The notes beneath the pieces were generated by a model. The model was given only the letters and a program-made list of their open reading frames with translations. It did not search any database and was not told the DNA's origin. Shown here one piece after another: positions 163-27,038 of a stretch of 52,653 nucleotides of DNA. This DNA is from Ignavibacteria bacterium (lineage in GTDB: Bacteria > Elusimicrobiota > Endomicrobiia > PHAN01): assembly GCA_041694835.1 (NCBI GenBank), contig JBGFRZ010000053.1, positions 1-52,653 on the forward strand. Reading direction: 5' to 3'. A program made the translations under genes and the position numbers. Numbering within the stretch: position 1 is the stretch's first letter; every line of letters begins with the position of its first letter.

Positions 163-621
163 GTGACGGTGTTTCTGGGTCTTGGTTCCAATATCGGCGA
201 CAGGAAGAGAAACATCCTTAAAGCCGTAGAAGAATTCGAAAGAAACGGACAGAAGATACTCAAAATTTCGTCGATTTATGAAACGAAGCCGTGGGGATTT
301 GAAAAACAAAGAAAATTTTTGAATGCCGCCGTAAAGATGAAAACTTTTTTGACCGCTTCAGATTTACTCGCTCTTTGCAAATATATCGAGAATAAAATCG
401 GGAGAAAAAAATCTTTCAGATGGGGCCCGCGGAAAGTGGATTTAGATATATTGTTTTATGGCAAAAAAAAAGTTAATACTGAAAAACTAAAAATCCCTCA
501 TCCCGAGATTAAAAACCGTGAATTTGTTCTAAACCCTCTCAAGGAAATCGCTCCAGATTTTATCCATCCCGTTTATGGACAAAGTATTTCAAATATGTTA
601 AAAAAACACTTAAAAATATGA
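163..621 (+). CDS. folK: 2-amino-4-hydroxy-6-hydroxymethyldihydropteridine diphosphokinase
   Basis: VFLGLGSNIGDR, SSIYETKPWG, WGPRKVDLDIL, IPHP motifs; GTG at 163 chosen as start (open frame begins at 100). Confidence 0.93.
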   Translation: MTVFLGLGSNIGDRKRNILKAVEEFERNGQKILKISSIYETKPWGFEKQRKFLNAAVKMKTFLTASDLLALCKYIENKIGRKKSFRWGPRKVDLDILFYGKKKVNTEKLKIPHPEIKNREFVLNPLKEIAPDFIHPVYGQSISNMLKKHLKI

Positions 622-627
622 TATAAT
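619..627 (+). promoter_or_regulatory. Extended -10 promoter element upstream of hup
   Basis: TGATATAAT (TGnTATAAT) ~130 nt upstream of the HU start codon. Confidence 0.45.
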
Positions 628-754
628 CTCTAAAAAATAAAGAGGCAATCATCGCACTTACTTTGAGTTGAGGAGGAACAAAATAATTTTTCAAGTCGGA
701 TGGCTTCCCATCCGTCAGGCGGAGATTAGTTGCTTTCTATAGGAGGATAAGAGG

Positions 755-23712: not shown

Positions 23713-23803
23713 AGAAAGTGGCTGGTGACTGGAGGAACGAGCCACGAGCCACAAGCGAACTCCCAAACTCCACAACTCTGCAATTTCCAAACTCTTTAAC
23801 TCC
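23704..23803. repeat. Nested short-tandem-repeat hairpin overlapping the rdgB stop
   Basis: GAGTTAAAGA..TCTTTAACTC outer arm; GTGGCTGG..CGAGCCAC inner arm. Confidence 0.7.
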
Positions 23804-23808
23804 CCAAT

Positions 23809-23886
23809 TGGGGTGGCTGACGGGATTTGAACCCGCGACCTTCCGGGCCACAGCCGGACGCTCTAAACCGCTGAGCTACAACCACC
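23809..23886 (-). tRNA. tRNA-His(GUG)
   Basis: G-1, GTGGTTG/CAGCCAC acceptor, C73, encoded CCA, TCCGG-CT-GTG-GC-CCGGA anticodon arm. Confidence 0.96.
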
Positions 23887-23891
23887 GTTAA

Positions 23892-24236
23892 AACAGTAAT
23901 CGGTAATCGGTAATCAGTAAGACAGAGGACAGAGGTCAGAGACGAGTTCAGAACCGATACAGGATGCAGGAGCACAAGGGCACAAGAACACAAGTCAGGG
24001 CAGCAGAGCAGCGGTGGCTCGTGGCTCGTTCCTCCAGTCACCATCCACTATTCGCTATTTGCTATTCACTATACGCTATTCTCTCACCCCTCACCCCCCA
24101 TCTCTCATCTCTATTCCCTATTGCCTATTGCTATTTACTATTCGCCGAACATTTTGCGGGATATAATCCCGCCGCTACTCTTACGCACCGTAAGACGGTG
24201 CCCCTACCTACTACCTGCTACATACTACATACTATA
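23892..24236. repeat. Array of many different short tandem-repeat modules plus two GTAG-type REPs
   Basis: GGTAATC, CAGAGG(A/T), GCACAAG, GTGGCTC, CTATTCG, TCTCATC, CTATTGC, CTACCTA, CTACATA units in series. Confidence 0.85.
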
Positions 24237-24280
24237 TTGAACGCGTCCGACAGGAATCGAACCTGTAACCCTCTGCTTAG

Positions 24281-24706
24281 CTTACCACTCTGAATTACTT
24301 CAGCCCCCGATAGCAACATTCGGGGACAAGCCCCTGATATCGGAGTTGTGGTCTGGACTATGTCTTCACCTTTTCAGGCGCGCGGCGTATAGTCTCTGAG
24401 GACTCGCTTCCAATAACAAGATATGAATTTGCCCACTTAACCTGTTTGTTTTGATTGTTAGAAGGTTTTTCAAAGCGAATCATATGGTTAATGCTCTGAT
24501 AATGGCAGACATGGCACATGCCCTTTTGAGATAAGGTCGGCAATAACTTTTGCCAATCCTATATCCGCTTTGTGTTTTGTGTGGTGCAAATTCACCTCCT
24601 TTATTGAAAGATTGCCTGCAAATAGTCCCCGATATATCGGGGGTGTCCTTGCATACAGCCGCGTCCACTTTATGCGTTTCGTTTTCGCATAAAGGCTCCT
24701 CTGCGG
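24281..24706 (-). ncRNA. Group I intron (426 nt)
   Basis: Exon ends in U, intron ends in G; P2 CTTTATGCG/CGCATAAAG; P3 CGCGGC/GCCGCG; P4 TGCAA/TTGCA; R TCAGAGACTA and S AAGACATAGTCC (P7 GACTA/TAGTC); P8 CGCCT-GAAA-AGGTG. Confidence 0.9.
24358..24589 (-). pseudogene. Decayed intron-encoded PD-(D/E)XK homing endonuclease (I-Ssp6803I-like)
   Basis: AGGAGGTG SD, TTG start, MHHTKHKADIGLAKVIADLISKGHVPCLPLSEH*PYD, then in another frame IRFEKPSNNQNKQVKWANSY; central part missing. Confidence 0.75.
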
Positions 24707-24880
24707 AAGGCAGATGCTCTATCCGTTGAGCTACGGACGCAAAAAATCAAATTTTAATTTTTCTATACATCGTGTCTTTTTAACACGAGAATTATTTTTC
24801 TTGTAGTTTGACTAATAAAACTATTTGATTGATAGATTATATCAAAAATTTCTCCGAAAACAATAAAATAAACCAAAAAA

Positions 24881-25004: not shown

Positions 25005-25032
25005 AGAAGCCCCGATTTTCATCGGGGCTTCT
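25005..25032 (-). terminator. Intrinsic terminator downstream of the outer-membrane protein gene
   Basis: AGAAGCCCCGAT-tttc-ATCGGGGCTTCT, followed by TGTTTTT on the minus strand. Confidence 0.7.
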
Positions 25033-25100: not shown

Positions 25101-27038
25101 TTAGAATTTAAGCGTTGCGCTGATTCTCCATGAAGCGAGGTCAAGTATTCCAGCCCCTGAACCCATGCCGGAAACACCAAGAATATCAAACGACAGATTT
25201 TCAGACCAATCATAACCGATGCCATAGTAGTACTGCGTGGTTCTCGTTATGCTGTTGGTCACAGTTGTTGTTTCTTGCCCCGTATTTTTACCTGCTCCGG
25301 TGCCTTCATAAGTAACGGGAGCGACTCCGTTGGATTCGACAGTGGTTTTAATTAAACCGTCATTTATTACTTTTGTAGTATTTGTTGCTTTTGCGGCTTG
25401 AATTTGATGTGTTACACCCAACCTCGTTGAAAATTTCCTCCAAACTCTCATTTCAAGTCCGATGGGTATTTGAAGCGTGTCTGTTTTATTTTCATTCACA
25501 AAAGTTGCGGTGTCAGTATCTTCAACTGTTGTGCGGTTATCTGTATCTAAAGGATCGTTCGTATCATTGACAACTTCTCCGTCGTTGTCCCCATCGAAAG
25601 TAGAGACATCTTTTCTTGACCTTGTATAACCCCCGTCGGTTTTAGCGGTTACCATTGTGTAAATAGCTCCAAATCCAAGCGTTACATTATTTTTAAGTTC
25701 AGCTTCTCCGCCGAGAGTTATTCCAACCGTATTGTTGGCTATATCGCCTGACACCGAGTAGGTTGTGTTGTCATTTTCCGTGGTTTTTGAGCGCCCACCG
25801 GCAACATTTGCTGCACTTGAAAAATAAACATTGGAATATGGCAGTGAGAGAGCGCCGGTTAATTTCTGTGGGACAGATTGTATATTGACACGTCCCACCA
25901 ATTTAAGAGCATCAGTTAATTTATAATAAGAATCCGCTCCTATATTTATGCCTGTTCCATCGGATTTTGCCGTGCCGATTTCGTTGCCGGTTATTCCCAA
26001 CCATCCTAGCGCACTGAACCCCCCCCAATTCATTCCGCCCGTCCAATCAAAACCATTCGTGACGGCTCCTGGAAGAAGTCCGAATCCTCCGGGAAGTGTA
26101 ACCAGATTGCCGTCAACCGCTGTGGCTTCAGCGGTTATGGGGTCTCCAGGTATTGCACCAGCAGTTTGGGATAAGTCAATGCTGACTTTGGCGGTTGATG
26201 CTCTGACTCTCTGCCTTGAGGTTGAAACGATACCTAAAACCGCTCCGACATTCAATTTATCGTCCAACAATCTAAAGCGAGTTCCTAAATTCGCCCTAAT
26301 TGTTGAATTTTTATTTGTTTCTTTAGCGTCTAATGAATAGTTGTGGGTCGTCACTATATTGGAAGGAGTTCCGATTGTGGTTAACCGCCTATAATGACTT
26401 CCTGTGATTGGTTCTTCAGAAGAAGGGTTGCCGTTTATGTCGGCATCATCGTAAAAAATGTTAGCTCCAAATTTTAACAAGCCAAGCAAGTTCATTGAAA
26501 ACAATGCGTTATAGTCAGTGCCGAAAGTTGAAATCTCGCGATTCGCCCTTTGATTGTCAACCCTTGTCCAGTCGCCGACATCAGTGTAGTCACCATCGTT
26601 ATTAGTATCACCTTGTGTGACCGTGTCTAACTTTCTATCGCCTGTGAACCCAAGAGTATTAATCGCCCCCATCAGATTGGAACCAGAATTATAGAGTAGT
26701 CCCATTTGGGAATCTGGGAGTATGTCGCCTAAAGGATTGCCGAAACCACCTAATAAAAACTGGTTCAAACCAATCCCACCGGTAGTTGTGCCGCCAAAAG
26801 CTCTGTCAGCCCCCAAATTGCCTCCGCCATATAAGTTTGACAAATTTGTAAAAACTCTGTAGCCGGAGACATTCAGCAAATCAGCCGGGTTTATTGAAAG
26901 AGGGTCGGAATACTCGTCCTCAATTATACCGACAAGATTGGGATTGATGCCCTGCATTCTTACGGATGTGACGCTGAAGTCCGCAAAAGCCGCCGCGGAC
27001 ATTGAAGCCAACAAACAAACTGCGAGCAACTTCTTCAT
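25101..27038 (-). CDS. Putative outer-membrane beta-barrel / surface protein
   Basis: Signal peptide (MKKLLAV..AAAFA), alternating beta-strand pattern, C-terminal WRISATLKF, DTNNDGDY and DGDNDGEV motifs. Confidence 0.7.
   Translation of the reverse strand: MKKLLAVCLLASMSAAAFADFSVTSVRMQGINPNLVGIIEDEYSDPLSINPADLLNVSGYRVFTNLSNLYGGGNLGADRAFGGTTTGGIGLNQFLLGGFGNPLGDILPDSQMGLLYNSGSNLMGAINTLGFTGDRKLDTVTQGDTNNDGDYTDVGDWTRVDNQRANREISTFGTDYNALFSMNLLGLLKFGANIFYDDADINGNPSSEEPITGSHYRRLTTIGTPSNIVTTHNYSLDAKETNKNSTIRANLGTRFRLLDDKLNVGAVLGIVSTSRQRVRASTAKVSIDLSQTAGAIPGDPITAEATAVDGNLVTLPGGFGLLPGAVTNGFDWTGGMNWGGFSALGWLGITGNEIGTAKSDGTGINIGADSYYKLTDALKLVGRVNIQSVPQKLTGALSLPYSNVYFSSAANVAGGRSKTTENDNTTYSVSGDIANNTVGITLGGEAELKNNVTLGFGAIYTMVTAKTDGGYTRSRKDVSTFDGDNDGEVVNDTNDPLDTDNRTTVEDTDTATFVNENKTDTLQIPIGLEMRVWRKFSTRLGVTHQIQAAKATNTTKVINDGLIKTTVESNGVAPVTYEGTGAGKNTGQETTTVTNSITRTTQYYYGIGYDWSENLSFDILGVSGMGSGAGILDLASWRISATLKF

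Follow-up and report, generated by a model that had tools for sequence, protein, structure and literature searches.

We consider it highly likely that this genome carries a single tRNA-Arg(UCU) gene, that this gene holds, at the U34/C35 junction, a group I intron of 426 nt belonging to a family widespread in genomes labelled Omnitrophota and Elusimicrobiota, and that the intron, whose homing-endonuclease gene is dead, is now fixed and immobile and kept for the tRNA that it interrupts. The gene structure, the family membership, the covariation of the ribozyme, the decay of the endonuclease ORF and the codon demand are all observed, in the window (the whole 52,653-nt stretch of DNA that was analysed) and in the genomes compared with it. 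Feature coordinates are collected in Table 1.

The split tRNA gene and its ribozyme

Joined in silico after removal of the intron, the exons give a canonical cloverleaf, tRNA-Arg(tct), with the anticodon loop CUUCUAA, and ARAGORN, once introns were allowed, made the same call and put the intron at 426 nt ('gcctt-Intron-ctaag'). The exons were 89% (5′) and 90% (3′, query positions 35-73) identical to the uninterrupted tRNA-Arg(UCU) gene of a genome of the same family, G002, where a second tRNA follows with an anticodon read as GUG (His) in the alignment, the same gene order as in the window. The intron starts with CCGCAGAGGAGCC and ends with GGUAAG, and the junction 34/35 (U34|C35) is unique, as no alternative combined a 7-nt loop, U at -1 and a terminal G. 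An earlier note on this DNA had placed a group I intron after the wobble base of tRNA-Arg(UCU) and held that, if the intron ends in G, the exons can rejoin only as CT-T|CT-AA; the first point is borne out by the splice, the cloverleaf and the family model R1 described below, and the second by the terminal G at 24281. The note had also foreseen that standard tRNA finders would miss the gene, and it was indeed missed by default ARAGORN and the Rfam tRNA model, which called only tRNA-Thr and tRNA-His in the window.

A promoter scan gave a 9/12 site directly upstream (24778..24751), the number of sites being no higher than in shuffles. The spacers around the tRNA-His gene and downstream of tRNA-Arg (window positions 23737-24234) are packed with short tandem arrays of 7-nt units, two to five copies each (ACGAGCC, GTAATCG, GACAGAG, GTGGCTC, CTATTCG, TCTCTCA, CTATTGC and CTACATA). 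On the minus strand at 25005-25032, after a 645-aa ORF (25101-27038), a strong hairpin (12 bp) precedes a T run; its weak Rfam matches to unrelated sRNA and leader families were set aside as terminator-like noise.

Table 1 Features of the split tRNA-Arg(UCU) locus, ordered along the minus strand (window positions)
Feature	Position	Strand	Details
tRNA-Arg(UCU) 5′ exon	24740..24707	minus	34 nt, tRNA positions 1-34; 3′ end is wobble U34 (...CUGCCUU)
Group I intron	24706..24281	minus	426 nt, C1 to terminal (omega) G; RF00028 and family model R1
Internal guide AGGAG	24700..24696	minus	GAG pairs exon CUU (P1, U34-G wobble); AG pairs 3′-exon CU (P10)
P2 hairpin	24668..24694	minus	9 bp, 9-nt loop; 9/9 pairs form; 8/9 covary in family
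P3 5′ strand	24658..24663	minus	pairs with 24381-24386; 6/6 pairs form; 5/6 covary
P4-P5 domain	24617..24653	minus	P4 24648-24653/24617-24622, near invariant; P5 24637-24642/24627-24632, 1/3 pairs covary
P6-loop insert	24402..24614	minus	holds decayed homing-endonuclease gene
RBS AAGGAGG	24595-24601	minus	inside P6 insert
Endonuclease N-terminal fragment	TTG 24589 to stop TAA 24488	minus	PF11645 match
Deletion junction	~24479/24480	minus	gap in alignment A2
Endonuclease C-terminal fragment	to stop TAG 24358	minus	other frame
P6 3′ strand (CC)	24400..24401	minus	pairs GG at 24615-24616; invariant in family
P7 5′ strand	24389..24396	minus	G, bulged A, GACUAU; pairs 24355-24361; family-invariant, but fixed by search pattern
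P3 3′ strand	24381..24386	minus	
P8 hairpin	24367..24380	minus	GAAA loop; 5/5 pairs form; 2/4 covary
P7 3′ strand (AUAGUCC)	24355..24361	minus	includes ORF stop codon UAG
P9 domain	24285..24351	minus	outer P9 (CCAC/GUGG), P9a, P9b; P9 2/5, P9b 5/5 pairs covary
tRNA-Arg(UCU) 3′ exon	24280..24242	minus	39 nt, positions 35-73; starts CUAAGCAG; CCA not encoded

Group I identity was assessed with Infernal covariance models, a check that the earlier note had named and that came out clearly with one model and below the gathering score with the other. The Rfam model RF00028 matched the intron over 24339-24717 on the minus strand at E = 4.4e-4 in a 1.6-kb search and 1.3e-4 in a search of the whole genome. 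Its score of only 25.8 bits, against a gathering score of 50, is explained by the P6 insert of about 210 nt; the alignment treated 202 nt there as inserted and ended short of the true 3′ end. In a BLAST search of the locus against 60 relatives, one genome alone matched inside the intron (G012, same class, other family), and its copy of this tRNA gene has, at the identical site, a 212-nt ORF-less intron that scored 59.5 bits against RF00028, above the gathering score. A family model built from 17 ORF-less relatives with the window left out (R1) matched the window at 24273-24486 (85.9 bits, E = 1e-27) and at 24565-24716 (71.4 bits, E = 8e-23), the two halves of the intron that flank the P6 insert. 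The splice sites read CUU|...GAG guide...G|CUAA, with U at -1 wobbling with the guide G and a terminal G, while the core runs from P3 to P8 with a P3/P7 pseudoknot, covariation in P3 (5/6) and P8 (2/4), and invariant P4, P6 and P7; the host tRNA, the site and, by the two R1 matches, the ribozyme are those of the family.

Across the whole genome R1 found nothing else bar a 21.6-bit echo on a 23S rRNA intron, and a weak RF00028 match on contig C24 reached 14.6 bits (E = 0.28). The 23S rRNA gene of the window's own genome (G000) holds two ORF-less group I introns (RF00028, 69.7 and 54.4 bits) with 19 nt of exon between them (contig C31:15727-16215; locus L001 1501-1989, minus strand), followed by the 5S gene. 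Eight further 'split tRNA' calls by ARAGORN in the genome were treated as ghosts, with no RF00028 match listed at any of them.

A check by coordinates showed that P2, P3, P4, P5, P6, P7, P8, P9, P9a and P9b each form fully in the window copy, in agreement with the P2-P4, P7 and P8 pairings claimed before. The claimed guide, pairing exon CUU with U-G at the splice site and 3′-exon CU, likewise held, P1 being paired in 99.5% and P10 in 96.8% of family cells. L8 is GAAA and L9b is GUAA (P9b, 24290-24303), and P9a carries an extra hairpin specific to the window (24322-24334). Group I introns already studied in tRNA genes suggest a mechanism by analogy: the pre-tRNA would fold as a P1-P10 ribozyme in which exon CUU pairs with the guide GAG through the U34-G wobble; free guanosine would attack 3′ of U34, the terminal G (24281) would occupy the G-site in P7, and the exons would be ligated to leave the loop CUUCUAA. 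On the same analogy the RNA would splice itself without protein, at a folding rate that the dead insert of about 210 nt and the extra P9a hairpin could lower.

Many organellar group I introns depend on proteins, and splicing in vivo might here too require a host protein or, formerly, a maturase encoded by the intron itself. We regard such dependence as very improbable. Nothing direct points to it, the features in its favour being a P1 of only 3 bp and the large P6 insert, whereas 21 ORF-less copies of 192-315 nt (20 loci and G012) persist in the family, so that the encoded protein is not required. The GNRA loops at L8 and L9b, conserved in type, are moreover consistent with tertiary contacts made by RNA only, and small tRNA introns like that of Azoarcus self-splice efficiently in vitro, according to the accessible part of PMC13168695.

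The demand for the tRNA is high. AGA is the commonest arginine codon (7748 of 18653, or 41.5%; 1.9 per 100 codons, in 770 ORFs of at least 300 codons), which extends to the genome the earlier remark that AGA codons are frequent. ARAGORN listed 38 tRNAs in the genome, among them Arg(acg), Arg(ccg) and Arg(cct) and no other Arg(tct); with introns allowed it gave tct at the split locus only, and BLAST of the genome with a relative's uninterrupted gene returned only the two exon halves in the window. The second Arg(UCU) gene that the earlier note had proposed looking for was thus found by neither program in this draft genome (89 contigs, 97.2% complete), in whose unassembled ~3% a copy may lie. 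Under standard wobble rules a CCU anticodon reads AGG only, and since no other Arg(UCU) gene was found, AGA decoding depends on the split gene, barring a copy in the unassembled 3%. With AGA at such a share of arginine codons and no second UCU gene found, splicing of the intron is therefore probably essential.

A copy in the unassembled DNA is also what would be needed if the locus were a dying pseudogene whose ribozyme no longer splices, a reading that we think has very little chance of being right. The clearly decayed endonuclease gene and the draft state of the assembly would suit it, as would the extra P9a hairpin, a basal C-A mismatch in P5 and departures from the family consensus at 4 of the 127 columns conserved at 90% or more. 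Such departures, however, number 0-7 in the other rows of the family alignment (A2, which includes the window), and in the window two of the four amount to one compensatory change in P3, from U-A to C-G; all family-invariant columns are kept, and 51 of the 53 family pairs are standard, with the two exceptions at pairs that fail in other rows too. Against a pseudogene stand also the searches for a second gene and the rank of AGA among arginine codons. We retain the reading of a probably functional split gene, and the locus offers a clean example of a late homing cycle, in which a rotted endonuclease gene sits in a ribozyme held intact by an essential tRNA.

The intron family and its covariation

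We scanned public genomes, one per species, with one exact pattern from the core common to the window and G012, and 66 loci matched. By a hand count of record titles, which give submitters' labels that may be unreliable, 33 are Omnitrophota/Omnitrophica, 16 are third-party MAGs titled 'Planctomycetia/-ales', 10 are Elusimicrobia/Elusimicrobiota/Endomicrobiales, 2 Deltaproteobacteria, 1 Armatimonadetes and 1 Clostridia, and 3 are unclassified. Under a strict test (an anticodon stem free of mismatches, CUU|...G|CUAA and a tct call by ARAGORN on the spliced product), 43 of the 66 are tRNA-Arg(tct) genes split at 34/35; the failures include loci where a single U-C mismatch interrupts that stem and loci whose 5′ exon lies partly beyond the 600-nt flank. 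A relaxed rule located both splice sites (CCUU|...G|CUAAGC) in 61 loci, and the five others (L025, L026, L072, L083 and L087) are cut by contig or flank ends, four of them keeping G|CUAAGCAG. ARAGORN's own placement of the intron in these loci was inconsistent (Gly, SeC, Ser and other calls), and the rule of U at -1 and terminal G was used instead. In viral contigs the core pattern had no match, which gives no phage vector at exact-pattern stringency.

Two observations concern the tRNAs of relatives. Twelve loci (L032, L037, L038, L042, L045, L048, L050, L062, L067, L068, L076 and L078), titled Omnitrophota or 'Planctomycetales', share a U29-C41 mismatch in the anticodon stem of tRNA-Arg(UCU) (CCUGC / GCCGG); nine fall in one starred clade of the tree, and L067 and L068 elsewhere. 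The Elusimicrobia-titled locus L039 (57-704, plus strand) has A for U at tRNA position 33 and U for G in the guide, changes that break one P1 and one P10 pair beside an intact endonuclease ORF and could reflect an assembly error or a failing gene.

Covariation was assessed in alignment A2, whose 63 rows are the 61 loci with both splice sites plus G012 and the window, extended by 10 and 8 nt of exon; it is annotated with P1, P10, P2-P9 and P9b, P7 being entered as a pseudoknot with P3 (53 pairs, 12 helices). Standard pairs occupied 99.0% of 3286 cells compared with 92.8% in shuffles, two-sided changes occurred at 23 of the 53 pairs compared with 14.7 ± 1.9, none of 500 shuffles reached the observed measures of pairing and covariation, and pairing fell to 31-46% when the 3′ partners were slid by 1-3 columns; these controls overstate independence, because the structure was drawn from the same related, pattern-selected sequences, and the search pattern itself dictated P7 and some of the core. 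The two-sided changes are broken down by helix in Table 1; P1 (only 3 bp), P4, P6 and P7 are invariant and thus uninformative in this respect. Of the 62 distinct rows, 61-62 form the P1 pairs, 59 and 61 form the two P10 pairs, and all 62 have the U-G wobble; the terminal G is an invariant column.

The relatives of the window are scattered. At E ≤ 1e-5, R1 found the family in 5 of 122 genomes of the window's class (its own genome, G000, with G012, G116, G117 and G118) and in 4 of the 67 that are at least 90% complete, with no match in the two genomes of the same family or in the 89 of the largest family. In a quick maximum-likelihood tree of 209 ribozyme columns, the window grouped with L027 (87% identity across 203 core columns) and L039, both Elusimicrobiota-titled (SH-aLRT 91, which is not strong). 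Judged by these neighbours, the genome of the window probably belongs to Elusimicrobiota or lies close to that phylum. Phylum labels were interleaved in the tree, with 20 label changes against a minimum of 4, a pattern consistent with a sporadically spreading element in labels and a tree too weak to prove transfers.

A decayed homing-endonuclease gene

The family falls into size classes. The introns of 20 loci and of G012 measure 192-315 nt and lack a family-type endonuclease ORF (L090, in this class, has an unrelated 104-aa ORF), and those of 40 loci measure 629-683 nt, 38 of them with an ORF (124-200 aa) in the loop of P6 and AAGGAGG ahead of it. The ORF is broken in the two others (L027 and L054), and L047 has a partly deleted intron (482 nt). 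The ORF of L039 matched the Pfam family PF11645 (PDDEXK_5, PD-(D/E)XK; E = 1.3e-27, 97 bits), and in the PDB its best match was 2ost_A (E = 5.7e-4), labelled a 'putative endonuclease' of 151 aa, in an alignment that takes in the YD...QVK block; NCBIfam had no family model for the intact ORF. The ORF usually overlaps the core: in the majority of intact copies its final ~16 codons (...ESSETIRHTPEMVKT), together with the stop UAG, lie in the P6 3′ strand, J6/7, P7, P3′, P8 and the P7 3′ strand, as in L039 (ORF 178-642, plus strand), and the overlap has its counterpart in the window at 24358-24410. By manual count, eight of the 38 intact ORFs end just ahead of the core, after ...DYLELK.

The remnant of this gene in the window had gone unmentioned in the earlier note. 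Read from TTG 24589, its N-terminal fragment is LHHTKHKADIGLAKVIADLISKGHVPCLPLSEH, and a TAA stands where relatives have CAA (24490-24488), after codon 33 from the aligned TTG start or codon 35 counted from the GTG start of the ORF listing. Beyond PYD the window row is gapped over A2 columns 383-609 relative to the intact ORFs, and the window intron is 204 nt shorter than that of L039 (426 vs. 630 nt); the deletion of ~204-218 nt shifts the frame and removes the catalytic D...QVK block, and past it the sequence resumes in the other frame with IRFEKPSNNQNKQVKWANSYLVIGSESSETIRRAPEKVKT up to the stop. The two fragments align to both ends of an intact relative's ORF. Against PF11645 the N-terminal fragment scored 19.4 bits (E = 0.0011, profile positions 1-32 only), short of the cut-off of 26.1 bits, and the C-terminal fragment gave no match. 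Judged from its sequence, with a stop codon and a deletion, the endonuclease gene of the window is dead, and the intron is for this reason immobile and retained only for the role of its ribozyme in making the tRNA. In G015, a genome of the same class in which R1 finds no intron, a 31-nt stretch (contig C31:6729-6759) matches the C-terminal endonuclease fragment at 90% (FEKPSNNQNK region), on a contig other than that with the match to the tRNA-Arg 5′ exon.

A homing cycle runs through invasion, fixation and decay of the endonuclease gene, with the ribozyme kept under selection, and the window locus represents its late part. The Arg(UCU) family appears to be mobile by way of a PD-(D/E)XK homing endonuclease encoded in P6, whose activity and target in the intact relatives are predicted from homology and position. 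More tentatively, and with somewhat less than even confidence, we propose that the family is a distinct mobile lineage crossing phyla, perhaps uncharacterised in peer-reviewed work, with an Arg(UCU)-specific PD-(D/E)XK endonuclease outside the cyanobacteria whose last ~16 codons and stop are embedded in the catalytic core (P6′-J6/7-P7-P3′-P8-P7′). If so, a given RNA could not be translated into the endonuclease and fold as the ribozyme at once, and the family would display each stage of the homing cycle, from the intact gene through the broken gene of the window to the ORF-less intron.

Because standard finders skip the split gene, the genome appears to have no tRNA for AGA, the arginine codon it uses most. 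At least 61 further species-representative genomes are subject to the same oversight, such that tRNA inventories and inferences of completeness and codon capacity are biased for Omnitrophota and Elusimicrobiota MAGs.

Relation to known tRNA introns

In GenBank genomes of January 2017, including metagenomic assemblies of unnamed phyla (0.49 split tRNAs per genome), Williams 2020 (bioRxiv 10.1101/2020.01.27.920355) added 17 new settings to the four classical ones (Leu.3Ug, Arg.5Ug, fMet.2Ug and Ile2.5Ug), making 21 among 5292 split tRNA genes, and assigned the four classical bacterial tRNA introns to IC3. The classic hosts named in the earlier note, Leu(UAA), fMet, Ile(CAU) and Arg(CCU), agree with that list. 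Its suggestion that Arg(UCU) at 34/35 might be an undescribed host and site did not survive, as the same intron occupies the same site at 61 of the 66 public loci and the settings had grown from 4 to 21 in Williams 2020. The site is not new in public genome data and very probably not new in print, and what the window adds is a family member with a decayed endonuclease gene. The main text of Williams 2020 mentions neither the PD-(D/E)XK gene nor its overlap with the core, nor Omnitrophota or Elusimicrobiota.

Literature searches for Arg(UCU) group I introns, also with Omnitrophota/Elusimicrobia, returned no paper describing the 34/35 site, only the Williams preprint being relevant. 'Group I intron' paired with Elusimicrobia gave no paper, and paired with Omnitroph- gave papers that by title treat other subjects. 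The accessible part of Hausner 2014 does not list host tRNAs, and that of the tRNAscan-SE 2.0 paper presents a tool not built for such introns and names fMet and Ile2 only. The 'group I introns' of PMC5733544, as described in the part available, are inserts of 22-49 nt in three cyanobacterial tRNAs (Arg(ACG), Gly and Lys) and were discarded as far too short for a group I ribozyme.

Compared by its junctions, the Arg(UCU) intron resembles the Leu.3Ug intron (CUU/a...g/AAAA in the text of Williams 2020) in its site after U34, the 5′-exon CUU, the U-G wobble and the terminal G, as well as in compact size and anticodon-loop position, but differs in host tRNA and 3′ exon (CUAA vs. AAAA). Set against the Leu.3Ug intron, the Arg(UCU) family often carries an endonuclease gene.

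That gene links the family to the Synechocystis tRNA-fMet intron, whose endonuclease, I-Ssp6803I, we take to be the protein of 2OST. The two endonucleases belong to one family (PF11645, E = 1.3e-27), and the predicted target of the Arg(UCU) enzyme, like that of I-Ssp6803I, is a tRNA anticodon stem-loop, whereas the Synechocystis host is tRNA-fMet with another loop position ('fMet.2Ug') and the proteins are distant (pairwise E = 5.7e-4). Close homologues of I-Ssp6803I are generally cyanobacterial, according to the part of Taylor and Stoddard 2012 available, in contrast to the Omnitrophota- and Elusimicrobiota-labelled genomes of the Arg(UCU) family, whose intact members may add another natural target specificity to the I-Ssp6803I-type endonucleases, a little-studied group. 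The introns of Agrobacterium tRNA-Arg(CCU) and Azoarcus tRNA-Ile(CAU) are likewise small bacterial group I introns of the anticodon loop, the former also in an arginine tRNA, but they ('Arg.5Ug', 'Ile2.5Ug') interrupt other isoacceptors and do so at setting 5, past the anticodon and two positions 3′ of the Arg(UCU) site.
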